Source: Pseudomonadota bacterium (GTDB lineage: Bacteria; Pseudomonadota; Alphaproteobacteria; UBA9655). Taken from it: 52,396 bases of DNA. Both the position numbers and the translations under genes were made by a program. The notes beneath the pieces are model-generated. The model was not told the DNA's origin. It made no database searches and saw only the letters and a list, made by a program, of their open reading frames with translations. Shown here piece by piece: positions 1 through 45,504 of this stretch; position 1 is the stretch's first letter, and every line of letters starts with the position of its first letter. The stretch spans positions 1 through 52,396 of the forward strand of contig JACPNY010000025.1 of the NCBI GenBank assembly GCA_016185255.1, given 5' to 3'.

Positions 1-483
1 ACGTTTGTCTTTTTCTATGTCTTCGATATAAAGGGGCTTTCCTGTATCAACCACAACCCCTGGGAATCCTATGCCCTTTTTAAAACGCATGGCTGTTGTG
101 ACTTCAAACAGTTCCGCGTATTTTTCTTTATCCTTGAGATAACATATACCTCCAGAAGTAAGTTCATTATTATTGTTAAGGTTTGGCATATAAACGTGTC
201 ATGCCGGCCATTTCTCAAGCTTACACACGGCATTAACAAAAAAGTGGAGGACTTTATCCAGGTTTAGAGTTCCTTCAGAAAGCTTAGCAATTGAAAGAAA
301 TAATTCTAGTTCACTTGAATATCGTTCGAGTTCATTATACTTTTTTTTAAGCTCTTCATGAGTCACATAAAGCTCACGTGTTTTGTCTTCTAACAATGTC
401 TCAGCCACAAGGCGCGCCTCTTTATCACGCCGCCGAGCTTTTTTATAAGTCTCTATTTCTAAAACAAAATCACTATTTTTCAA
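1..483 (-). pseudogene. H-NOX-associated GAF-domain signalling protein (C-terminal part lies outside window), interrupted by in-frame TGA at 199-201
   Basis: TTG start at 483 lies 6 nt after GGAGG and overlaps the H-NOX stop. A coiled-coil N-terminus is followed by a GAF-type signature (KGIGFPGVVVDTGKPLYIEDIEKD, bases 1-189) in the same frame as ORF 202-483. A single TGA separates the two parts. Confidence 0.55.
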
Positions 484-1018
484 TGGTGACCTCCAATCGA
501 CAATGATCCGCTCCTTTGTGCATACAAATGGGATGTTGAATCGCAATGGGAACGTTAAAATGATTGGCAGCTCCCTTCGTAAGGCCAACGGCTAACGCAC
601 AAAGTTTACGAGGAGAGCGGTAAAGGATGACGAGCTCATTTGGGGAAGGCTCCTCATAACTCATAGCGGGTAAAATAGCATCTGAGTAAAGTTTGTTGAC
701 TTCTACATGAATAATTTTATCTACGTTTTTCATAAATTCCTTAAAAGAGATCCCTTCAGGAAGAAATACAGGGTATTTATTCGCCAACACTGGAAAAAAG
801 TAGATCCCGAAGGCTTCAATAAGTTGTGCTGGTTCAATCTTTTTAAGCTTAGATAATTCCATAACGTAAGAAACCAACTCTGCATCTTTATATGTTCCCC
901 CTGCTGTATAAATCCCTTTATTCTCGGGGTGAACTTTATCTAATAGAGTTTCCCAAGTTGCAAGCCCAAATTTTTCTTCAACCATGTCATTGAGTGTAGT
1001 AAAGACAATTCCCTTCAT
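473..1018 (-). CDS. Heme-NO/O2-binding (H-NOX) sensor protein
   Basis: N-terminus MKGIVFTTLNDMVEEKFG. Candidate proximal His in VDKIIHVEV. Y-x-S-x-R motif present (LYRSPRK). Length 181 aa is typical of stand-alone H-NOX. Confidence 0.85.
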   Translation of the reverse strand: MKGIVFTTLNDMVEEKFGLATWETLLDKVHPENKGIYTAGGTYKDAELVSYVMELSKLKKIEPAQLIEAFGIYFFPVLANKYPVFLPEGISFKEFMKNVDKIIHVEVNKLYSDAILPAMSYEEPSPNELVILYRSPRKLCALAVGLTKGAANHFNVPIAIQHPICMHKGADHCRLEVTIEK

Positions 1019-7542: not shown

Positions 7543-8091
7543 ATGAAACCTTATTTTTTTCTTAGCGCATTTGTCTTTCTTGTTGAGGGAGGCCTAGAAG
7601 CTCAGAACTATAACGCCCTTCCTCCGACCCCCTCAGAATCACCGTCTGTTACTATCCCCGCAGACGTTGTATCGTTGCTTTTGGGAAAATCAGATTACCT
7701 AAACCGAAATCCAAATCCGTCAGTCTTCGATTGTTCTGTTCTGCTTAACAAAACTTGGACCTATTCTAATGCTCAAATGTTTCTTGTTTGTGGCGAGGCT
7801 GAAACGGCCTGCATACGGTATGGTATAATTCAACAAACTCTTTTAACCCAGCAGCAAGAAAAGTCCAGCAATGAGGGTAACACCAAGGGATTCTCTACGG
7901 AAAGTCTTAAATCCGCACTTTCTGCATGTCGTGCAGAAGTGGAGTTTAAGCTTATGGGGTGTGCCACAGCTCTTCAAAGCGTAGGTGATAGTAATTCTCT
8001 CATTAATCAATCAGGGTTTGCTGGACCTACTGCTTCGCAACAGATGAAAAATTCTAGCTCTACGAAAAGTTCTAATTCTACAAAAAAATAA
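7543..8091 (+). CDS. Hypothetical secreted protein (signal peptide, Ser/Thr-rich tail)
   Basis: Hydrophobic N-terminus MKPYFFLSAFVFLVEGGLEA. No recognisable domain. Confidence 0.6.
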   Translation: MKPYFFLSAFVFLVEGGLEAQNYNALPPTPSESPSVTIPADVVSLLLGKSDYLNRNPNPSVFDCSVLLNKTWTYSNAQMFLVCGEAETACIRYGIIQQTLLTQQQEKSSNEGNTKGFSTESLKSALSACRAEVEFKLMGCATALQSVGDSNSLINQSGFAGPTASQQMKNSSSTKSSNSTKK

Positions 8092-8106: not shown

Positions 8107-8676
8107 TCAAATTCTCCAAGTGTTTTGATAAGCTTCGTATTGACTACCTGCTAGAGGCAGGATTCCATGGAAAAGCCCATCAGGGGAGTTTTGAGGTTTG
8201 AGTTCTACGACGTAAGGCCATAAACCAAATTTTTTTGTAGAAACATAAACGTCTGGTAAGAGCTTCATGATGATAAAGCTCACTTTTTTTTTCGATCCAA
8301 AAGCAACAAGCTCCTCATACAATCCTCGATAAAAATTTTGTAAAAAGACATCGACTTCAGATGTGTTGAGGAGAGGGTAGTTTGAAGAAGGCTCAAAATA
8401 AATAGTCGAACATTCCCAGACAGTGTTGTTATGGACAGTGAGCGTGGTAACAAGCTCTCCGAGATCTTCTTGAATATCAGTAATCTTTTTTTTAAGAAGA
8501 CACGCTCCCCCACATATTTTTTTGCCGCGAGCTTCTGCAATGATGAAAATGGGAGTGATTCGATTTTTCAAAGAAAGCTCAATCCCCTGAAAGAATTTCA
8601 TTTTTTCAATTATTAGCTTGATAAGTTTATTTTTGAAAATTCGTTGAGTCGATTCAATGATCTCAAACTTAAGCAT
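8107..8676 (-). CDS. Hypothetical protein with weak resemblance to LuxI/N-acyl-amino-acid-synthase (GNAT-like) fold
   Basis: ATG at 8676 (MLKFEII). The blocks ICGGACLL and VWECSTIYF are reminiscent of the G..RL and E.SR blocks of that fold, but the key Arg residues are absent. Confidence 0.45.
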   Translation of the reverse strand: MLKFEIIESTQRIFKNKLIKLIIEKMKFFQGIELSLKNRITPIFIIAEARGKKICGGACLLKKKITDIQEDLGELVTTLTVHNNTVWECSTIYFEPSSNYPLLNTSEVDVFLQNFYRGLYEELVAFGSKKKVSFIIMKLLPDVYVSTKKFGLWPYVVELKPQNSPDGLFHGILPLAGSQYEAYQNTWRI

Positions 8677-9031
8677 AGGCGCTCCTGCTACTGTTGTTAA
8701 AATCTGAGTCCGCAAAAGGCCATTTTATAGGAAGGTAGACTTTTAGAAAAAGTTGATGTATCCTCCCTACGATTGTGACCTTTTATGGGTTCTAATTTTT
8801 TTATTGAGCACCTGAGATTTCTAAAAAATAGGTTCGCAGGCACTTAGTTATTGAGAAGGTTGGGTTTAGAAATCTCCCTATCTTCTTTTTTTAGGTTAAT
8901 CTTTTTTGGTATTTTGTATATCATAAATTTTATAAATGCTAGCTTTTTTTCGCATCGTGCGATTTTAGGGTTACCACAACCGTCTTTATGGACTAATATT
9001 TATAGGAGATTGATTTTAGGTAAAGAAGCGT

Positions 9032-9508: not shown

Positions 9509-9599
9509 AACAATAGTCTTTACGCTTTGAGTCTTGATGTACGAGTCCTTCCTCCAACAATTGTTCGAGTTATCCGTAAAAGGTGGTGACGGAGATATT

Positions 9600-9905
9600 A
9601 AGTAGCCATTAGGTCATCACAGGGGATGAATTCATAACCATCTTGGAATGTGCCCCTAAAATGACTTTTGGCAACTAATCATGCCCATCAAGCGTGCACC
9701 ATGATTTTTTCTGTATTTTTGATGAGCTTAAAGACCGTGAGCAAGGCACCCCTTTCGAGTGTTTGGGGCTGGGCGCTGTATTTTTCAAGGAAGAGGTCAA
9801 AAGTCTTATGGGCCTCCTCTCTGTTTTCAGCCATCCATATGTTGTGAAAATCTGCTTTGGCTTTGTTTTGGAGAGGGTTAGGAATCTTCTTTAAAACATT
9901 GGCTT
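9600..9905 (-). mobile_element. IS256 (Mutator)-family transposase C-terminal remnant, internally deleted, with stops
   Basis: The minus-strand translation reads ANVLKKIPNPLQNKAKADFHNIWMAENREEAHKTFDLFLEKY...ALLTVF. In another frame it continues LDGHD*LPKVILG, matching the conserved IS256-family tail (..DGHNQLPK.ILGVKF). Confidence 0.6.
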
Positions 9906-10070
9906 ATTTTTCTCCGTCACCAACTTTTTCAATTAATTCGGTTGTAATTTTACAATTGTTATGCTATATAACAAATTACTAAAATTGATGATTGAAATAA
10001 AAAATAACATTTAATAGTTATTCTTATTTTTTTTAATATTTAATAATTCTTTTTAATTTCGTTAATATCA

Positions 10071-12176
10071 ATGAAATCTATAAATTATCTATTATTACTT
10101 TTTGTTACTTTATGCTTTTCTTTGGGGCCAACCTTTGCTTTTTCAGAATCTGATGAAGGTGAAGGTCACATCTTGTTGGAAGAAAAACCAACTGCTCGAG
10201 TCAAGAGAAAATCTAAGGATGAGAGCCTTGAGTTATTACAAGATTGGGTGAACTTAGGCCTTATAAAAACAGCCCCTATCGAGGTGAAGGCAGGCCAGAA
10301 ACTTAAGGTTACTTGCGACTTTGATAAAGTCACAGAACGAACTGCTATATCTTTTCTTAATTCCGCACAGAATGGTTATTATGACGGCGGAGTCACAGTT
10401 GATCCTGGTCAGGAAAGTGTTATATTTTCTTCTGTTGTTCCCCCAGACGAGACACGGTCCTGGTTAATTCTTCGTAATCCCGGGTTTGATGGAAAAACTC
10501 TCCTTCCTTTTGGTGTAAGGCTTAAGAGCGTTAGCATAGATGTGGAGCATAGTTCAAAAAATCAACTTCTTAAGCCCGTTGATTTCTTACAAGATTGGGT
10601 GAACTTAGGCCTTATAAAAACAGCCCCTATCGAGGTGAAGGCAGGCCAGAAACTTAAGGTTACTTGTGACTTTGATAAAGTCACAGAACAAACCGCTATA
10701 TCTTTCCTTAATTCCGCACAGAATGGTTATTATGACGGCGGAGTCACAGTTGATCCTGGTCAGGAAAGTGTTACATTTTCTTCTATCATCCCCCCAGACG
10801 AGACACGGTCCTGGTTAATTCTTCGGAATCCTGGGTTTGATGGAAAAACTCCTCTTCCTTTTGGTGTAAGGCTTAAGAATGTTAGCATAGATGTGGAGCA
10901 TAGTTCAAAAAATCAACTTCTTAAGCCCGTTGAGCTCCCACAAGACCTACCTAGCCTTGTAAGTGTACTGACAAGCTCTCGTATAGAATTTGAGCAAGAA
11001 TTGTCTAGTAAAGAAAACATTAACTCCGAAATGCCACTAGGCACGATCGGGCGGAAAAAACTAGGGCTTAGATTTAAAGAAAAAGCAGAGAAACGGTTGA
11101 ATTATCTTACTAATGAGCATTCCGAGAATCGGGGGGAGGGGCCAGTATCTACAGACTCTCTAATAAGTCTGCACATGCAATCTCTAATGCAGAAAAAAAA
11201 GGGTCTTAAAACAGGCGAGTTTACCACACCAGAGCTTGCTCAGGCTCTTTTGGCACGCGCAGGCATACCCTTAACAGATGTGACAGTCACGCCCATGAAG
11301 GGTGGATTTGTTAGTGGCGAGGTTTATATGATAGAGGGTTACTCTGAACAAGGAAAGAAAAGGGAAAGATTCTTCTTAAAATATCTGCGTCAATGTATGT
11401 TAGTAGACAAAGCTCGTTGTGCAGGTGAAGTACGAAATTTACAAGGGATCAAAAAACTTTTAAAAGAGAGAAAGTTAGAAGAAGCGGGCTTTTCTTTAAT
11501 TCTCCCCATATTTGAAGGCCGGTATTTCTATAAAAAAAAGGAAAAATTATTCACAATTTTACCTGCTGCAAAAGGTAGAAGTTTGACGAACATTGTTCGG
11601 TCAGATATTAAGAAAAATTCTAGCGTAGTTTTCCAAGCGTTTTATGATGTTGGTTTAGCACTCGGGACATTTCAGTCGAAGAATATTATTTTCCCAGAGA
11701 CGTTTGAGTCTATTAAACAACGATATCTTGAAGCCAATACTCTTGTTCATGGTGATTTTCATTCTGATAATATTTTCGTAAAGGCAAAAGGAAGAGTTTC
11801 TTTAATCGATATTGAGACACTTGCTTACAGTTTTGATGAAAATGCCAAACCAACAGCACCTTTAGTTTATGATATTTTTTATTTTATTCAACAAGCCCAT
11901 CGTCGCTTTGAAAAGTCTGACTTAGGAGAGATGAAAAAGTTAAAGTGGAAGATGTATACAAATTTTATCGATGGATATATTGCGGGGTTTTCTGCTGATC
12001 AGCAAAAAGGGTTACGGGCTTACTTGGAGAGTTGCTTTCATCACGCCGATGAAGTTGAGTTTGTTGATATATTCCCGAAAGTTATGGGCCATCTTGTTAC
12101 ATGGAAGAAAGCTCCTGATGATAAGTATTCGAAGCAAATTATTGGGGCTCTGTGTAGCCATCTGAGTCATCTGTAA
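10071..12176 (+). CDS. Secreted protein: signal peptide + two 117-aa tandem modules + C-terminal protein-kinase-like (APH/ChoK/ePK fold) domain
   Basis: Signal peptide MKSINYLLLLFVTLCFSLGPTFA. Kinase-like motifs are a Gly loop (GGFVSGEVY), a beta3 Lys (FFLKYL), a catalytic loop (HGDFHSDN, 11748-11771) and a metal-binding motif (LIDIE). Confidence 0.8.
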   Translation: MKSINYLLLLFVTLCFSLGPTFAFSESDEGEGHILLEEKPTARVKRKSKDESLELLQDWVNLGLIKTAPIEVKAGQKLKVTCDFDKVTERTAISFLNSAQNGYYDGGVTVDPGQESVIFSSVVPPDETRSWLILRNPGFDGKTLLPFGVRLKSVSIDVEHSSKNQLLKPVDFLQDWVNLGLIKTAPIEVKAGQKLKVTCDFDKVTEQTAISFLNSAQNGYYDGGVTVDPGQESVTFSSIIPPDETRSWLILRNPGFDGKTPLPFGVRLKNVSIDVEHSSKNQLLKPVELPQDLPSLVSVLTSSRIEFEQELSSKENINSEMPLGTIGRKKLGLRFKEKAEKRLNYLTNEHSENRGEGPVSTDSLISLHMQSLMQKKKGLKTGEFTTPELAQALLARAGIPLTDVTVTPMKGGFVSGEVYMIEGYSEQGKKRERFFLKYLRQCMLVDKARCAGEVRNLQGIKKLLKERKLEEAGFSLILPIFEGRYFYKKKEKLFTILPAAKGRSLTNIVRSDIKKNSSVVFQAFYDVGLALGTFQSKNIIFPETFESIKQRYLEANTLVHGDFHSDNIFVKAKGRVSLIDIETLAYSFDENAKPTAPLVYDIFYFIQQAHRRFEKSDLGEMKKLKWKMYTNFIDGYIAGFSADQQKGLRAYLESCFHHADEVEFVDIFPKVMGHLVTWKKAPDDKYSKQIIGALCSHLSHL
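10236..10933 (+). repeat. Direct tandem duplication, 2 x 351 bp, in frame inside CDS 10071-12176
   Basis: Unit 1 is 10236-10586 and unit 2 starts at 10587. About 17 mismatches counted by eye. Confidence 0.95.
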
Positions 12177-12193
12177 AAGTTGGTGACTCTCGA

Positions 12194-18953: not shown

Positions 18954-19965
18954 CTATGGAAAAGCGCAGGGAGAACAGGTTTTGGCTTGCTGACTTTGGG
19001 CTTCTGCTTCTTCAAGGGCTGTGATAATGTGGGCTTTGGAATTTAAAAATTCTTGATAGGAAAAGGTCACAAAGAGAATGACCCAAGGAGTAAGGTCTCC
19101 TGAAAGCTTCATACTTTGTTGATCTAAAGCTCTCGCAATTATTTCCGATTTCAATAGATTTGAGAAGGTAAACATGGGCCATCTCAGACCTTGCCAAATG
19201 GTTTTGTTGACAAGAGCTCTCCCCACACGCCCATTGCCGTCTCTAAAAGGATGGATAGACTCAAAGTAAAAATAGACAATGGCAGCGCGCACGAGACTTG
19301 GGATTTTAACGGTACCGTGGAGTGGATCTGTTTGATTAAACCAAGCTATAAATTTGCTTATTTCTTCATTTATCTTTGTGGGAGGAGGAGGTCTGTACCT
19401 AATCCGTCTCCACCATCTGATCTTGTTCCCAGTCTTTCACATAAATTTGTTGGGTGCGCCAGCGACCCACCTTAATCTGATCGCGTTGAAGCGGGTCCAT
19501 GATCACTGTCTCGTGATATTTAAAAAGCTGCTCTTGAGAAAGAGGCTCTTTAAAGGTTTGGCTGATTAAAAAGATCAAGCGTGCGAGGCCTAAGTCACGG
19601 CTTTTTTTAAGGTCATTGTCCTTTATGTCATGTTCAAGAAGAGAGAAAAGCTCATTGAGATCAATTTCATTGTCGAGTTTTAAGATTTTAATGGCGTCTA
19701 AAACAATAATTTTTCGCATGACCTCCCGTTGGAGAGAAGGAGACAGATTATAAAATCGCTGAGAAAGGGCGGCGGTTTCTCTGTCATAAGCCTCAAGGGT
19801 GGTTTGAACCTCGGAAAGATCATACTGAAAATTTGGCCAACAGGGAGATTGCCAAAAATAGAGGGTTTCTGCTGCTTCAGGCTTAATATAATCGTCTTTA
19901 TCAAAAGCCCAAAGAACATCGGATAAGGAAATGAATATGCCAAAAAAAATAAAAGTGCGTTTCAT
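18954..19965 (-). pseudogene. Fic-domain protein with N-terminal signal peptide, split by one frameshift between 19399 and 19436
   Basis: Fic motif HPFRDGNGRVGR at 19218-19253. The upstream ORF ends ...KVGRWRTQQIYV...ETD*. The conserved continuation RYRPPPPTKINEEISKFIAWFNQ is in the adjacent frame. Confidence 0.75.
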
Positions 19966-20427: not shown

Positions 20428-22446
20428 ATGGCGAACGCTAAACCTTTTTTAGACGTACAAATGCCTGGTGGTACGTCCTTTCTCCTGGCTGAGTTTCAGG
20501 GCACAGAACGGCTATCTTCTCTTTTTGAATATAATCTTATGTTGTTTGCCGAAAGTCGGACGGTGGACTTTAGTACGCTTATGGGGCAAAGCGCTACCGT
20601 TTCCATTAGTGTGGGATCTGAGAAACGCACCTATAATGGGATTATTGGGCATTTTGAGCAAGAAGGAACGCCTTTTACGCCTCTTAAGTCTGTTTCAACA
20701 ACGTATCGAGCCATTCTTTATCCCAAACTTTGGCTTTTAACCATGTCCGGCCAGTGCCGTATTTTTCAAAATAAATCCACCATGGATATCATTAAGACTG
20801 TGTTAGATGAGGCCCAAATTCCCTATTCCAATCAGGTGACGACGTGTGGGCAGGATCCTCTGGACTTTTGTGTTCAATACGATGAAACGAACTTTAATTT
20901 CATCTCTCGTTTGATGGAAAGAGAAGGCATTCTTTATTTCTTTCAGCAAGAGCAAGACAATCACAAGCTTGTGTTAGCAGATTCACCAGATTCTCATCAG
21001 CCTTGCCCGAATGCGGCAACGGCAAGCTTTCACGATAGTTCTCTTTATGACGAGATGATGTTACAGGTGGGGTCCTGCTTTATTGCCCAGCGCCTGGTTC
21101 CTCAAAGTAATACCTTGAATAGTTATAATTATTTGACTCCTAAAACCCCTTTAAAATCCGTTGCAACGGGAAACTCTGATGCAGGGGGAGGGAGTATTAC
21201 GCGTTATCGTCAAATCTATGAGCAACAAAGCCGGGGAGATGCTCTTTCGAAGATACAACTCCAAGCGGAAGAACTCCCCCAGAAAATGGTGGAGGGTGTG
21301 TCAACGATTCCGTTTTTTCTTGCGGGATATAAATTTACGTTGAAAGACCACCCGCGAGATGACGCCAACATTGATTATGTTCTTTATGAAGTCGTTCATG
21401 AGGCCTATTTGGAGCCAGAGGGAAAAAGAGAACATATCTATAAGAATAGCTATCGCGCTTTTCCAGCAACCATACCTTTTAAGCCTCCTCAACTTACGCC
21501 AAAGCCCCGTATTTATAGTACTCAGACGGCTAAAGTAACAGGAAAGCAGGGAGAAGAAATCTATACGGAAGAATATGGGCGCATTAAGGTCAAATTCCAT
21601 TGGGATCCATCGGAGGCGGAAGATGATACAACGTCCTGTTGGATTCGGGTGGCCACCTTATGGGCGGGACAAACATGGGGAAGCTTATTTACTCCCCGGG
21701 TTGGGCAAGAGGTGGTGGTCTCCTTTATTGATGGAAACCCCGATTATCCTTTGGTGGTAGGATCTGTGTACAACGGAGACAATAAGCCCCCCTATTTGCC
21801 TGACGAGCCCACAAAATCAACAATTAAAACTCAAAGTAGTAAAGCAGGAGATTCCGGTACTGCAGGATTTAATGAACTTCGATTCGAAGACAAGCAAGGA
21901 TCCGAAGAAGTTTATATGCATGCCCAAAAGGATTTCAATATTAAGATTGAAAATGATCAGAGTATTACTCTTGTGGGGGGAAGTCGTACGGTTGCTCTTC
22001 AAGCGCAGCAAGGGGATAGTGGTGGCGGCGGAGAAGGAGGCGGCGGTGGGCAGGGCAATGATAGCTTAACCTTAACAAATGGGAATAAATCCTTAAAAAT
22101 TGATAAGGGAGATTATTCGATTACACTGTCAGATGGAAATATCAGCATCACCTGTAGCCAAGGAAACGTTACTTTTGATATTCAGGGAGCTGTGTCCATC
22201 CAGTGTTCAGACGACTTTAGTGTTAATGCAGGAGGCAACGTCAGCATTACTGCAGGCGGTACGCTTGAAGCAACGGCGGGAGGAGATGGAACTATTTCTG
22301 CAGGCGGTGCGATTGAAGTAACAGGGGGAGGAGAAGCAACCTTCACTGCAGGAGCGAATGGAACGATTTCGGCAGGGGCTGCTCTTGAAATCCAAGCGAC
22401 GGGAACGGTGTCAGTAGCAGGACTCACAATAGAACTAAATGGATAA
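20428..22446 (+). CDS. vgrG: Type VI secretion spike protein VgrG
   Basis: N-terminus FLLAEFQGTERLSSLFEYNLMLFAE...LMGQSATVSI. gp27/gp5 core present (RVATLWAGQTWGSLFTPRVGQEVVVSFIDGNPDYPLVVGSVYN). The C-terminus is a beta-helix of repeats. Confidence 0.92.
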   Translation: MANAKPFLDVQMPGGTSFLLAEFQGTERLSSLFEYNLMLFAESRTVDFSTLMGQSATVSISVGSEKRTYNGIIGHFEQEGTPFTPLKSVSTTYRAILYPKLWLLTMSGQCRIFQNKSTMDIIKTVLDEAQIPYSNQVTTCGQDPLDFCVQYDETNFNFISRLMEREGILYFFQQEQDNHKLVLADSPDSHQPCPNAATASFHDSSLYDEMMLQVGSCFIAQRLVPQSNTLNSYNYLTPKTPLKSVATGNSDAGGGSITRYRQIYEQQSRGDALSKIQLQAEELPQKMVEGVSTIPFFLAGYKFTLKDHPRDDANIDYVLYEVVHEAYLEPEGKREHIYKNSYRAFPATIPFKPPQLTPKPRIYSTQTAKVTGKQGEEIYTEEYGRIKVKFHWDPSEAEDDTTSCWIRVATLWAGQTWGSLFTPRVGQEVVVSFIDGNPDYPLVVGSVYNGDNKPPYLPDEPTKSTIKTQSSKAGDSGTAGFNELRFEDKQGSEEVYMHAQKDFNIKIENDQSITLVGGSRTVALQAQQGDSGGGGEGGGGGQGNDSLTLTNGNKSLKIDKGDYSITLSDGNISITCSQGNVTFDIQGAVSIQCSDDFSVNAGGNVSITAGGTLEATAGGDGTISAGGAIEVTGGGEATFTAGANGTISAGAALEIQATGTVSVAGLTIELNG

Positions 22447-23131
22447 AAGCCCTATGGACGAGCAGTCTGATCAAGAAACGTTAAACGATGAAGAGCCTAC
22501 AGAGGCTCAAGAATCCCCTCAGCCAGGAGAGCGCCGCTTTATAGGTCATGTTATTGATAATAAAAGACATGGCGTGGTGGAAAAGTATGATGAAAATGCT
22601 AATCTCGTCTCTGCGCATCCATTCGAAAAAGGACGCCTTCATGGAGAGTCTCGCCGTTATGATAAGTCTCAGCGGTTAAAAGAAAAAATAACCTACCATG
22701 AAGGAGTAGCTCATGGGCCAGCGGAATTTTACAAAAGGGGAACTCCTTCGCTCTCCACCCATTTTCATGAGGGAAAGCAACATGGAGAAACTACTTTTTA
22801 TGATGACGGAGGAGCCGTTCGGGCGCGTGTTCAATATGAAAAGGGAGTCAAACACGGCACTTCAATCGGCTATGATCTTTTAGGACGTGTGAAACGTGTT
22901 TCCCATTATCAGAATGGCCTGTTAGATGGTCCTACCATGAGTTACTATCCCAGCGGCGCCCTTCTTGAATCAGGGCTATATGTGCAGGGAAAACGTCATG
23001 GTGAGTTTATCTCCTATTATGAAAACGGAGGAGCGCGCCAAGTCCTCGTCTTTGACATGGGGCGCCTTGTGCGAAAACCTCAATTTTATGATTCTCACGG
23101 CAATCCCATGTCTTCGGGGATTGAAAGATGA
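22439..23131 (+). CDS. MORN-variant (YwqK-type) repeat protein with acidic N-terminal tail
   Basis: Seven ~23-aa repeats of the form G..HG....Y...G. 8-nt overlap with the vgrG stop. Confidence 0.85.
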   Translation: MDKSPMDEQSDQETLNDEEPTEAQESPQPGERRFIGHVIDNKRHGVVEKYDENANLVSAHPFEKGRLHGESRRYDKSQRLKEKITYHEGVAHGPAEFYKRGTPSLSTHFHEGKQHGETTFYDDGGAVRARVQYEKGVKHGTSIGYDLLGRVKRVSHYQNGLLDGPTMSYYPSGALLESGLYVQGKRHGEFISYYENGGARQVLVFDMGRLVRKPQFYDSHGNPMSSGIER

Positions 23132-23520
23132 GTCTTGCGGTTGTTGGAGAGCTTTCCGCCATTCAGTGTCTTTTTGGGGCATCGCCAACACCCTTAATTG
23201 TGCTCCCTGATCGAACGATTACAGCAGAACTTTCGCTGATGGGCAACATTTCGGATATGATTCCTTTTGTTAATATCCTAACCTTTGTAGAATGTGTATC
23301 GCTTGCTAATCCGCAAGTGATTATTGCAACAGCAGCTGCTATGGGAGTTTTAACGCCTATGCCGTGCGAACCAATTGTCGTTGATCCCTGGGTTTCTGAA
23401 GCGCTGGATGTGTTCGTTGAGATCGTGCCAGCTCTTGATCAAACTTCTATTGTGATGTGTATTTGGGCAGGGGTCATTCATGTCGATGAGCCCGGGAATG
23501 TGACGGTGATGGTTCCTTGA
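23128..23520 (+). CDS. DUF4280 (PAAR-like) domain protein
   Basis: VVGELSAIQCLFGASPTPLIVLP ... IPFVNILTFVECVSLANPQVIIATAAAMGVLTPMPCEP ... CIWAGVIHVDEPGN fits the DUF4280 consensus. ATGA overlap with the MORN gene. Confidence 0.85.
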   Translation: MSLAVVGELSAIQCLFGASPTPLIVLPDRTITAELSLMGNISDMIPFVNILTFVECVSLANPQVIIATAAAMGVLTPMPCEPIVVDPWVSEALDVFVEIVPALDQTSIVMCIWAGVIHVDEPGNVTVMVP

Positions 23521-33780: not shown

Positions 33781-34320
33781 ATGCACAATAAATTTCTCCG
33801 GACATCGGTGATCGCGTTGAATTTAGGCGTCGCGATAATTGCAGGCGACACAACTTGGTCAGGGAAGGTTTCCGCGGCAACGCTGGATGCGAGTGATGGA
33901 ACTCTCGCACTGTTCCATGTGAAGGATGCGCCCTTCGGTGGGTACGTGAAGTTGGGAGTGAGTCTGCGGCCGAGTGGGGCAGGCCGGTCTTATCCGTATG
34001 GGCTTGAAGTGGCTGGGAGCACGCTCATGGGTTCACAGCAGGTGGCGTTCGCGAGCTGGACTTTGGAGCACGGGGGGGTCTCCTGGAGAGACTTCGTGGC
34101 TGCGGATGGGGAGGTTACAATGAAAATTCAGTGGCCTGGTCAGGGGCCTTACCCTTTTGAGAACATCTGGTGGGTCGCCGCAAAGGACATACCCGCTCCA
34201 GACGACAAGGGAATGGAAACGCTGGCCTACCTGAATACTTTAAAATACTCACTGGCTTGCACCGACACGCACCCAGACACTGCTGAACCGTCTTGTGACC
34301 TTACGGTAACCAGAGAGTGA
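33781..34320 (+). CDS. Hypothetical secreted protein, compositionally foreign (GC-rich)
   Basis: Signal peptide MHNKFLRTSVIALNLGVAIIAG. GC is visibly well above the window background. No recognisable domain. Confidence 0.6.
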   Translation: MHNKFLRTSVIALNLGVAIIAGDTTWSGKVSAATLDASDGTLALFHVKDAPFGGYVKLGVSLRPSGAGRSYPYGLEVAGSTLMGSQQVAFASWTLEHGGVSWRDFVAADGEVTMKIQWPGQGPYPFENIWWVAAKDIPAPDDKGMETLAYLNTLKYSLACTDTHPDTAEPSCDLTVTRE

Positions 34321-44532: not shown

Positions 44533-45504
44533 TTATTTATTGAACATGCTAAGAAGTTTTATGAAGTGTCCTCCGCGGTCTTTAAACCCAGGGAGTTCTT
44601 TTGCCTGACCCAATAATTGGATTAATTTATTCGTCCCAAGATCAGCCGTTTGATTTTCAACAGAGGGAAGTGAAACCCTTATCATATCTTCGAAATCTTG
44701 CTGTTGATCCTCATCAAAAATAAGGTGCAACGTTGCAATTGCTTGATTTGAGTATCCATCATTATAAGAAACAACTGACCAAAAACTTTGACCTATAACC
44801 TCAGAAAGACCAGAAAGACCAACAGGTTGAGGAGAAATGACTTGCATACACCCCCCAATATGTACACAGGGTTTCTGATGATCACCCGTGCATTCAGGAT
44901 GAATCACACTTTGGACACTTGAAACTGTGCTCATTGCACACTTCTCTTCATCTTTTATTTCCAGAGTTTGAGGAGACTCTTTGCGATCAATATAATAAAG
45001 CTTTACTTGTTGAGAATCACTATAAAGTACCCTAATTTTTGGATTTCTAATAGCAAAGTAGGCCCCTTTCTGGGGGGCTAAAGGATCAGTCCCATACTGT
45101 GGATAAAAGCCATGATGATACTCATCGAACTTTAGTGGGCAAGTTTGTCCCACTACAAAAATTTTAATCCCATTAGGCCCAACGTTATCCTCCTTGAATC
45201 CTTCCTGAATAGGAGAAGGGAGATTTGAAGCGTATGCGAGAGGAATATGCATAAAAAGAGAGGATGTCTGCAATATACTAGAATGATCCTTTGGCATATA
45301 GCTCTGAATTACTGGGGCTTTTGGCAAAACACCCCCGTAAAGATTAGAAAAACCTTTGTTTTGTTCATAAGCTCCATTTTTTGGATAGATTTGAACAGTT
45401 TTTTTATCAGCAATTACTTCCCAGTCTGAGTCATCCATAGAATGGACGGGGGTGAAGCTCATCATTGTTATGAGCACAAAAAGACTTAAAGATATTTTTT
45501 TCAT
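44533..45504 (-). CDS. Hypothetical secreted protein
   Basis: Signal peptide MKKISLSLFVLITMMSFTPVHS. No recognisable domain. Confidence 0.65.
   Translation of the reverse strand: MKKISLSLFVLITMMSFTPVHSMDDSDWEVIADKKTVQIYPKNGAYEQNKGFSNLYGGVLPKAPVIQSYMPKDHSSILQTSSLFMHIPLAYASNLPSPIQEGFKEDNVGPNGIKIFVVGQTCPLKFDEYHHGFYPQYGTDPLAPQKGAYFAIRNPKIRVLYSDSQQVKLYYIDRKESPQTLEIKDEEKCAMSTVSSVQSVIHPECTGDHQKPCVHIGGCMQVISPQPVGLSGLSEVIGQSFWSVVSYNDGYSNQAIATLHLIFDEDQQQDFEDMIRVSLPSVENQTADLGTNKLIQLLGQAKELPGFKDRGGHFIKLLSMFNK

Follow-up and report, generated by a model that had tools for sequence, protein, structure and literature searches.

A module-bearing protein with a signal-like peptide and an APH-like kinase domain as a candidate exported, host-directed kinase

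Within the 52,396-nucleotide stretch of alphaproteobacterial DNA that we analysed (the window), one open reading frame encodes a 701-aa protein that we read, at a probability of about one half, as a Sec-exported, modular, host-directed kinase. The product begins with a signal-like peptide and continues with two 117-aa modules, a polar linker of 95 aa and a C-terminal domain of ~320 aa; this domain has a confidently modelled kinase fold and an intact catalytic set, with every ATP-binding and catalytic residue kept. Sister proteins that share the tandem modules carry other C-terminal cargos of kinds that suit a eukaryotic host, and the named relatives of the kinase domain come from lineages of amoeba endosymbionts; a host-directed effector role for the window protein is credible but unproven. 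The frame and its parts are as follows.

10071–12176, plus strand: whole open reading frame, 701 aa plus stop codon, ATG start
10071–10139, plus strand: signal-like peptide MKSINYLLLLFVTLCFSLGPTFA (aa 1–23), called by a hydropathy heuristic, cleavage inferred after TFA
10140–10226, plus strand: charged spacer (aa 24–52) between signal peptide and modules, with 6 K/R and 8 D/E among its 29 residues
10227–10577, plus strand: module copy 1 (aa 53–169), a 117-aa lineage-specific unit, bounds from tblastn
10578–10928, plus strand: module copy 2 (aa 170–286), 92% identical to copy 1 in protein and about 95% in DNA
10929–11213, plus strand: polar, charged linker (aa 287–381) without a family match
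11214–12173, plus strand: protein-kinase-like domain (aa 382–701) of an uncharacterised APH-like family, from AlphaFold2 and Foldseek

The kinase-like domain and its nearest relatives

The original prediction placed a protein-kinase-like domain with five ordered motifs at the C-terminus, and structural modelling agrees. AlphaFold2 with a 33-sequence family alignment gave a confident model of aa 370–701 (pLDDT 93.2, pTM 0.91), with low pLDDT at the first 10 modelled residues on the linker side (aa 370–379); the single-sequence run on the same residues was unusable (pLDDT 41.6). All five motifs lie on the elements expected of them in the model, namely the beta1–beta2 loop, beta3, helix C, the catalytic loop and the metal-binding loop.

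11301–11327, plus strand: Gly-rich loop GGFVSGEVY (aa 411–419), between beta1 and beta2 of the model; G412 nearly invariant
11379–11381, plus strand: beta3 lysine K437 (in FFLKYL, aa 434–439), invariant in 33 sequences; model strand 62–70
11427–11429, plus strand: helix-C glutamate E453 (in AGEVRNL, aa 451–457), at least 90% conserved; model helix 78–96
11748–11771, plus strand: catalytic loop HGDFHSDN (aa 560–567); H560, D562, H564 and N567 invariant
11802–11816, plus strand: metal-binding motif LIDIE (aa 578–582); I579 and D580 invariant

No catalytic residue was lost on alignment: K437, H560, D562, H564, N567 and D580 are invariant across the 33-sequence family alignment, and G412 and E453 are conserved in at least 90% of it. 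On the strength of this conservation and of their placement in a confident model, the five motifs are more than a chance pattern. The domain also shows what defines the PKL superfamily, that is, a bilobal fold with the Gly loop, the lysine, the glutamate, the catalytic aspartate, an asparagine five residues on and the metal-binding aspartate in that order.

Structure searches pointed to kinases throughout. Foldseek against the PDB returned 720 matches at E < 1e-3, and the best 50 of the 720 were all APH or protein-kinase entries, headed by APH(2'')-IVa and APH(3')-Ia (TM 0.34–0.43 by query, rmsd 8–16 Å), with FGFR2, ALK2 and PknB scoring nearly equally among the same 50; structure matches in BFVD were nearly all annotated kinases. 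Sequence similarity was fainter. Pfam APH (PF01636, clan PKinase) reached 20.0 bits with the whole protein and 21.6 bits with the domain alone, under its threshold of 23.2 and over the catalytic loop only, a stretch that also weakly matched EcKL, RIO1 and ABC1, and searches of PDB sequences with the whole protein and with the family profile yielded marginal kinase matches only (E ≥ 0.012). The Hanks-type kinase signature consists of HRDLKxxN, DFG and APE; HGDFHSDN and LIDIE stand in their place here, and PF00069 scored 12.9 bits against a threshold of 31.7.

The family around this domain has 88 representatives at E < 1e-3, 11 of them at E < 1e-30. Its members fall below Pfam thresholds; for 28 of 33 the highest-ranking Pfam family is APH, and the weak matches include Choline_kinase, Kdo and WaaY. 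Beyond the bilobal fold, the best Pfam family and the top structural matches, the window domain has in common with APH/ChoK-type enzymes an HGD-x-H-x-x-N loop, an ID-x-E motif and, some 20 residues further on, a conserved Asp, all of which we take to be APH-family motifs. It differs from them in its low scores (20–21.6 bits, below 23.2; TM 0.35–0.5; 10–14% identity), in the signal-like peptides of its family and in its fusion to a putatively exported tandem module. An exported effector or surface enzyme, rather than an antibiotic or choline kinase, had been proposed for this gene: the signal-like peptide and the host-type cargos described below speak for the first half of that proposal, but setting aside the antibiotic or choline kinase type went too far, the APH enzymes being, as judged from Pfam and structure searches, the nearest known group. 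The outcome named beforehand as refuting, a confident model of a cytoplasmic small-molecule kinase behind a non-functional signal peptide, did not arise: the resemblance to small-molecule kinases is distant, protein kinases come close to them in score, and the signal-like peptide is conserved, not spurious.

Export signal, tandem module and host association

The Sec signal peptide named in the original prediction is borne out by a heuristic inspection of the N-terminus (MKSINYLLLLFVTLCFSLGPTFA, followed by FS), which found a basic n-region, an uncharged hydrophobic core (mean Kyte–Doolittle 2.7 over 11 residues), small residues at −3/−1 in the form of a T-x-A site, and no lipobox. The same feature is conserved among paralogues: the window N-terminus can be aligned with that of paralogue P0120 starting at residue 1, resembles that of P0003, and has a signal-like counterpart in every N-terminally complete module paralogue. 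In the kinase family, too, signal-like N-termini begin most of the N-terminally complete members: 8 of 14 close homologues under a strict rule (several others were fragments or fell narrowly below the rule), 55 of 91 distant ones and two of the three homologues from named Paracaedibacteraceae genomes. Applied as a control to the window's own frames, the rule flagged 8 of 40, several of which sit in the membrane or are exported, such as YidC, a BON protein and transporters.

A Sec signal accounts for delivery to the periplasm only. The neighbours of the window gene include none for type II, IV or V secretion, and in the loci that were inspected, those of paralogue P0007 and of the closest homologue, P0011, the neighbours are housekeeping genes and a secretion system is likewise absent. 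At 8 kb from the gene there is a VgrG/DUF4280 islet; it was considered as a partner and set aside, with no link between the two and none of the known markers of type VI effectors seen in the protein.

The two proposed modules were confirmed at a period of 117 aa, with 109 of 117 residues and 334 of 351 nucleotides identical between copies in the register first assigned to them (aa 56–172 versus 173–289). Because the copies are about 95% identical in DNA, the duplication appears recent. The module, which probably adopts an all-beta fold, is known from this MAG lineage only, where it has at least 10 paralogues; it had zero matches in GTDB species representatives or JGI metagenome contigs, searching the protein database with its profile brought in just three more fragments, the same profile found nothing meaningful among PDB sequences, and tblastn across the window revealed no additional copy of either module or kinase. 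The literature that we searched gave no account of the module or of the kinase family.

One partial likeness is to the 'choice-of-anchor U' domain (NCBIfam NF041766). Paralogue P0002 scores 60.4 bits against a cutoff of 32, only when summed over its copies, and 10 of 19 modules match at E ≤ 1 (best 4.5e-4), with matches that leave the last third of the model uncovered; in the window, the whole protein had no match, and copy 1, the one window copy with a result of its own, had none at E ≤ 1. These matches hint at an extracellular, beta-rich domain.

Within one genome lineage the module bears at least four kinds of cargo: a kinase, a PARG-like macrodomain (paralogues P0004 and P0006, PARG_cat_microb at 56–74 bits), a ubiquitin-interaction motif, or UIM (P0005, 22.4 bits, cutoff 21), and a coiled coil (P0002, whose long, charged C-terminal tail looks coiled-coil-like by eye, with weak SMC matches). 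The PARG-like macrodomain and the UIM are consistent with host-directed functions for these paralogues. The C-terminus of P0003 was considered as an OTU-like deubiquitinase from its NGCGYYSLG and terminal HYD, and dropped when searches of Pfam, NCBIfam and PDB failed to bear this out.

Homologues of the kinase domain include P0015 (WP_038464202.1, Ca. Paracaedibacter/Odyssella acanthamoebae) and proteins of Ca. Odyssella sp., a Paracaedibacteraceae bacterium and Caedibacter sp. 38-128; distant members of the family come from Ca. Babeliales. Ca. Paracaedibacter and Odyssella are endosymbionts of Acanthamoeba (PMC5751055). The named relatives, as identified by homology, thus belong to amoeba-endosymbiont lineages, and from these relatives and its gene content the source bacterium is itself likely to be protist-associated.

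On the reading that we prefer, Sec export and cleavage of the signal peptide would release the protein from the bacterium or leave it on the surface; the protein would then arrive in a host cell compartment where ATP is available and phosphorylate a host molecule there, whether protein, lipid or small molecule. The tandem modules would act as a common carrier, for export or retention or for binding to the host, onto which recombination would have swapped various host-directed domains. A bolder form of the proposal, which we regard as doubtful, is that the module is a new carrier that brings Sec-exported proteins from the envelope into the protist host cell, that it serves as a platform for interchangeable kinase, PARG-like and ubiquitin-binding cargos, and that the APH-like kinases with signal peptides in Paracaedibacteraceae and Babeliales form a new host-directed class that works without a type III, IV or VI system.

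Alternative readings and the setting of the gene

The protein might instead be a small-molecule kinase of the envelope or surface, exported to the periplasm or outer face and acting, as APH, ChoK and Kdo-type kinases do, on an envelope component, an antibiotic, a sugar, choline or a lipid. The lead of APH among both Pfam families and fold matches fits this, as do the weak Choline_kinase, Kdo and WaaY matches, the resemblance of the paralogues' modules to a surface-protein domain and a lipobox-like LAGC in the close kinase homologue P0017, which suggests envelope anchoring of that protein. With small-molecule kinases as its nearest relatives, the window protein may likewise have an envelope role or a substrate other than protein. 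We nevertheless consider an envelope enzyme unlikely: ATP is scarce in the periplasm, where an intact and conserved binding site for it could hardly be put to use; the APH, ChoK and WaaP enzymes known to us are cytoplasmic; sister proteins on the same module carry the eukaryote-targeting UIM and PARG-like cargos; and the similarity to APH is low, with protein kinases scoring nearly equally.

A second alternative draws on the surroundings of the gene, which had been described as an accessory patch next to an IS256 remnant and behind an extremely AT-rich leader. The patch indeed lies between housekeeping blocks (upstream plsX and a frame that we take from reading alone to be L32-like; downstream miaB-type, acyltransferase and GNAT genes) and contains the IS remnant, one HTH gene and frames that match no family. 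The leader has a GC content of 18.7% against 43.7% in the window; it holds one sigma-70-like match, at 9956–9985, and the promoter and terminator scan gave nothing exceeding chance, with promoter-like sites as numerous as chance would predict. The remnant is a weak candidate: inverted arms (9566–9595 and 9911–9940; 30 nt, 80% complementary) flank a match to Transposase_mut (PF00872; E = 0.019) that reaches 14.3 bits, below the cutoff of 21.

9566–9940, minus strand: candidate degraded IS256-family remnant, with the Transposase_mut match of 14.3 bits and 30-nt inverted arms
9900–10070, plus strand: AT-rich leader, 18.7% GC, 5' of the ATG
12173–12187, plus strand: third IS-end-like 15-mer, GTAAAAGTTGGTGAC, overlapping the stop codon of the frame

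The gene could accordingly be a recent and possibly non-functional chimera, in which a module cassette was fused to a kinase gene in an IS-scarred, low-GC patch and whose product may be unexpressed or unused. IS-end-like 15-mers occur at 9576, 9916 and 12173 (4 matches against 0.14 expected), the IS256-like remnant lies directly upstream, the near-identical modules point to recent duplication, and modules and kinase were combined in none of the homologues found. Inspection of the leader, moreover, found no clear Shine–Dalgarno sequence before the ATG. Against a dead chimera, the frame of 701 codons is unbroken and retains all catalytic residues, the C-terminus of the kinase stops about where that of its closest homologue, P0011, does, and the shuffling of cargos onto the module is the usual pattern among the paralogues. 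We judge this reading improbable.

We give little credence to a third possibility, that the domain has a kinase fold but performs other chemistry in the host, such as AMPylation like SelO or glutamylation like SidJ, or serves as a binding scaffold. SidJ exemplifies non-kinase chemistry in effectors with a kinase fold (PMC9950578), and the family is too remote from characterised enzymes for its chemistry to be read from homology; its Gly-rich loop, K, E, D-x4-N and D are, however, complete, ordered and conserved, which is the pattern of ordinary phosphotransfer.

Finally, the database gene model (P0001, 667 aa) begins at a TTG, codon 35, that leaves out the signal peptide and that, unlike the ATG, is preceded by a GAAGG-type ribosome-binding site, yet a cytoplasmic APH-like kinase starting there is very improbable, given that paralogues conserve, as a signal-like peptide, the 34 residues before the TTG and that such peptides are general in the parent families of both module and kinase.

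Relation to known systems and implications

A host-directed kinase of this kind would have partial precedents. CotH and Fam20 are kinase-fold proteins with signal peptides that are active outside the producing cytoplasm, and in these respects they resemble the window protein; its motifs are APH-like, however, and neither CotH nor Fam20 appeared in the Pfam, PDB or fold results (the best 50 of 720 for Foldseek). HopBF1-type kinases were likewise without an entry in the PDB sequence search or among the best 50 of 720 Foldseek matches. We know of no HopBF1-type or other atypical effector kinase with a Sec signal peptide, and the Sec signal of the window protein argues against type III delivery. 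Effector kinases with scarcely any sequence similarity to eukaryotic kinases are nevertheless an established class, which includes the type IV effector kinases of Legionella and the APH-like HopBF1, a type III effector with a minimal kinase fold that resembles both protein kinases and APH (PMC9950578). The window domain shares with HopBF1, LegK7, XopC2, Lem28 and VopG a bacterial kinase fold of low similarity to eukaryotic kinases, theirs acting on host targets, and differs from the minimal fold of HopBF1 in its length of about 320 aa.

In architecture, the shared signal peptide and tandem modules, followed by C-terminal domains that differ among paralogues, recall polymorphic toxins and effectors. 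Unlike those, the module carrier does not match any trafficking domain known so far, an immunity gene is not apparent, and the UIM, PARG-like and kinase cargos suit a eukaryotic host, not rival bacteria.

To our knowledge, little is understood of how protist symbionts such as Paracaedibacteraceae and Babeliales affect their hosts, and this locus offers two testable handles on the question: a kinase family of 88 representatives that seems to be routinely exported, and a carrier module. Automated surveys of secretomes would overlook the protein, since its signal peptide is lost from the public gene model, which takes an internal TTG as the start. If its site of action is the envelope, the protein would be unusual as an enzyme that depends on ATP outside the cytoplasm; if, as we favour, the kinase acts on the host after Sec-dependent export, it would add a new delivery route and a new kinase class to the effector catalogue.

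A kinase fold behind two repeated modules

The open reading frame lies where the original prediction placed it, and both the 117-aa period and all five kinase motifs read from the sequence were recovered. The two module copies are identical at 109 of 117 amino acids and 334 of 351 nucleotides, and tblastn against the 52,396-nt window found no further copy.

Gene, modules and kinase motifs
10071-12176, + strand: open reading frame, ATG start, 701 aa
10227-10577, + strand: module copy 1 (tblastn)
10578-10928, + strand: module copy 2 (tblastn)
aa 411-419: Gly-rich motif GGFVSGEVY
aa 434-439: FFLKYL motif
aa 451-457: AGEVRNL motif
aa 560-567: HGDFHSDN motif
aa 578-582: LIDIE motif

Taken alone, library searches gave weak evidence for a putative kinase identity of the C-terminal domain: the top Pfam match of the protein was APH (20 bits, under the 23.2-bit cutoff), matches to EcKL, RIO1, ABC1, Kinase-like and PK_Tyr_Ser-Thr fell on the same catalytic-loop stretch, and NCBIfam and PDB sequence searches returned marginal kinase matches at most. 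Searched exhaustively with aa 370-701, a set of 1.84 billion representatives yielded 88 relatives at E < 1e-3 (11 at E < 1e-30). Across an alignment of 33 family members, K437, G502, H560, D562, H564, N567, I579 and D580 are invariant and G412, E453 and D601, among others, are at least 90% conserved; APH matched 28 of the 33 (best E = 1.5e-5), TCAD9 14, EcKL 11 and choline kinase 7. With this alignment, AlphaFold modelled the domain with pLDDT 93.2 and pTM 0.91 (single-sequence pLDDT 41.6), setting the Gly-rich motif between strands one and two, K437 in strand three, E453 in the long helix after it, HGDFHSDN as the catalytic loop and LIDIE as the metal-binding loop. Foldseek against the PDB gave 720 matches at E < 1e-3, the best 50 being APH or protein-kinase entries throughout, with APH(2'')-IVa and APH(3')-Ia on top and FGFR2, ALK2 and PknB close behind (TM-scores 0.35-0.5 at most; identity 10-18%); the best match among viral models was a giant-virus APH-domain protein (E = 7e-10, TM 0.49). 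The confident model, the kinase-fold matches and the five motifs on fitting elements bear out the proposed membership of the kinase-like superfamily, and the kinase fold and catalytic residues, with an intact active site, are established.

The expectation that this would be neither an antibiotic nor a choline kinase went too far: the closest known group is the APH/ChoK type, whose members the domain probably works like, although it falls short of the family's own PF01636 threshold. It does not belong to the Hanks-type kinases (12.9 bits versus 31.7), and no link to HopBF1, CotH, Fam20 or Legionella kinases was detected by PDB sequence or Pfam searches or among the best 50 of the 720 Foldseek matches.

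A module family with exchangeable C-termini

A first database search with the window protein returned ten proteins, each similar to it only in the modules; their sources were a single MAG (locus tags HYX35_*) and a handful of Logan assemblies. A module profile search added three more fragments, and neither GTDB representatives nor JGI metagenomes gave a match when scanned. The module is therefore restricted to the MAG lineage of the window. Paralogues that include an N-terminus are built alike: a signal peptide leads, between two and five modules follow, and the C-terminus varies. They thus swap cargo on a shared carrier.

C-terminal regions of the module paralogues
P0004, P0006: microbial PARG-type macrodomain (56 and 74 bits); in P0004, TIGR02452 on the same C-terminus
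P0005 (N-terminal fragment without a start): three ubiquitin-interaction motifs after the modules (22.4 bits versus cutoff 21; LALSLQE-type repeats by eye)
P0002: long charged, coiled-coil-like tail
P0003, P0010: C-terminal domains without family assignment
P0007-P0009: no C-terminal cargo, modules last

The locus tags of P0003 and P0005 are consecutive (HYX35_03780, 03785), so these genes stand in tandem. Two sets of matches hint at the fold of the module. Modules matched Ig, Ig_3 and fn3_5 below threshold; NCBIfam 'choice-of-anchor U' was matched at E <= 1 by 10 of the 19 modules and passed in P0002 when summed over copies (60.4 bits versus 32), with no match in that search for window module copy 1 or the whole window protein. 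Kinase homologues read full-length lack the module and none of the other module paralogues carries a kinase domain, so the window protein is a fusion of two families. The segment before the kinase varies across its family, since the homologues P0011 and P0016 have 500-aa Glu/Arg/Gln/Lys-rich repetitive regions, not modules, between signal peptide and kinase domain. The layout of the module paralogues resembles polymorphic toxin/effector systems in its shared carrier and variable cargo, but the carrier is not a known one and the cargos are host-type. A literature search found no description of either family.

Predicted export and endosymbiont relatives

A simple hydropathy rule supports the predicted signal peptide: the N-terminus begins with basic residues, has a hydrophobic core free of charges and a T-x-A site, and lacks a lipobox. 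By the same rule, signal-like N-termini occur in all N-terminally complete module paralogues, 8 of 14 close and 55 of 91 distant kinase homologues, and 8 of 40 window ORFs taken as a control (several failing close homologues are fragments or slightly below threshold, and several of the control ORFs that were flagged encode membrane or exported proteins). Copies of the kinase in the Odyssella and Caedibacter genomes have such N-termini too. Given this frequency among homologues, export from the cytoplasm looks like a predicted trait of the kinase family; to our knowledge, APH-type kinases that have been characterised do not carry one. The close homologue P0017, from a Logan assembly, starts with the lipobox-like MMLKFLPMIALAGC, which suggests that it is a putative lipoprotein and not secreted in soluble form.

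The family occurs in named endosymbiont genomes. The close member P0015 corresponds to WP_038464202.1, from Candidatus Paracaedibacter/Odyssella acanthamoebae. Among GTDB species representatives, homologues turned up in Ca. Odyssella sp., a Paracaedibacteraceae bacterium and Caedibacter sp. 38-128; more distant members carry the name Candidatus Babeliales, and all the rest are metagenomic proteins. The window also encodes a ROS/MucR regulator, a mainly alphaproteobacterial type, which together with the homologue list fits a relative of Paracaedibacter/Odyssella-type endosymbionts as the source. Both Ca. Paracaedibacter and Odyssella live as endosymbionts in Acanthamoeba (PMC5751055).

Other genes in the window
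473-1018, - strand: haem-NO-binding (H-NOX, HNOB) protein gene, close to the contig start
18954-19965, - strand: Fic gene, apparently split
19399-19965, - strand: its ORF with a signal-like N-terminus and DUF4172
18954-19292, - strand: its ORF with the end of the Fic domain
20428-23520, + strand: orphan type VI spike islet of VgrG (Phage_GPD, Gp5_trimer_C, Phage_base_V), then a MORN-repeat protein, then a DUF4280 protein
33781-34320, + strand: ORF with a signal-like N-terminus, no Pfam match
44533-45504, - strand: ORF with a signal-like N-terminus, no Pfam match

DUF4172 is an N-terminal domain in Fic proteins, and the split gene may represent another exported host-type enzyme that has since become a pseudogene or suffered a frameshift. 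We take the DUF4280 protein to be PAAR-like; the window ORFs searched contained no further type VI genes.

A candidate host-directed kinase and its alternatives

We give a probability of about 0.5 to a Sec-exported, modular kinase that phosphorylates a host molecule. The protein would be exported by Sec, cleaved near residue 23, and released from the bacterium or displayed on its surface; it would then gain access to host ATP, and its kinase-like domain would phosphorylate a host molecule, while the modules may serve export, retention or host binding. Host direction is argued for by the sister cargos, which would target eukaryotic ubiquitin and poly-ADP-ribose, and by the periplasm, which holds little ATP. 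That atypical effector kinases form a known class, which includes the APH-like HopBF1 (PMC9950578), points the same way. Since the motifs follow the pattern of enzymes mostly acting on small molecules, we stop short of proposing a protein substrate. A small-molecule kinase of the envelope or surface would suit the APH-like affinities of the domain, the lipobox-like motif of P0017 and the surface-protein-like character of the module, but ATP supply and the sister cargos make it an unlikely, if serious, alternative.

As anticipated, the gene occupies a lower-GC accessory patch between housekeeping blocks (plsX and, by our own reading, an L32-like ORF on one flank; miaB-type, acyltransferase and GNAT genes on the other), with two ORFs of no family match, an HTH gene, an IS remnant and an AT-rich 170-nt leader (18.7% GC versus 43.7% across the window). 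Around it lie three copies of an IS-end-like 15-mer, GTAAAAGKTGGTGAC, for which 0.14 matches are expected by chance.

ORFs of the low-GC patch and copies of the 15-mer
7543-8091, + strand: ORF, no family match; signal-like N-terminus, Ser/Thr/Asn-rich tail
8107-8715, - strand: ORF, no family match
9576-9590, + strand: 15-mer, core of a 30-nt inverted arm
9916-9930, - strand: 15-mer, core of a 30-nt inverted arm
12173-12187, + strand: 15-mer; common part the outer 24 nt only; overlaps the ORF stop codon
42548-42562: weaker copy

With inverted arms upstream and the stop-codon overlap downstream, both ends of the gene appear to be shaped by IS activity; at the 12173 copy, the convergent miaB-type gene has its 3' end (stop codon) 7 nt away. 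The suggested IS256 remnant is plausible but weakly supported, the minus strand of the 315 nt between the arms matching Transposase_mut (IS256 family) at 14.3 bits (E = 0.019). The IS-scarred patch, recent module duplication and absent ribosome-binding site could also reflect a recent, possibly unused chimera; this is quite improbable, as the reading frame is unbroken, every catalytic residue is kept, and the protein stops at roughly the position where P0011 does. A kinase fold with different chemistry, or a scaffold, is very doubtful given the complete canonical residue set.

In the public gene model, P0001 (667 aa), translation begins at TTG codon 35, with a GAAGG-type ribosome-binding site ahead. 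The 34 residues that it omits (window 10071-10175) are conserved in paralogues (BLASTP aligned P0120 from residue 1 through LLLL..LCFSLG.T, and the P0003 N-terminus resembles that of the window protein), which supports the ATG start and contradicts a cytoplasmic enzyme translated from TTG, a reading we rate as highly improbable. With the signal-like peptide dropped from P0001, secretome surveys built on deposited annotation would overlook the window protein.
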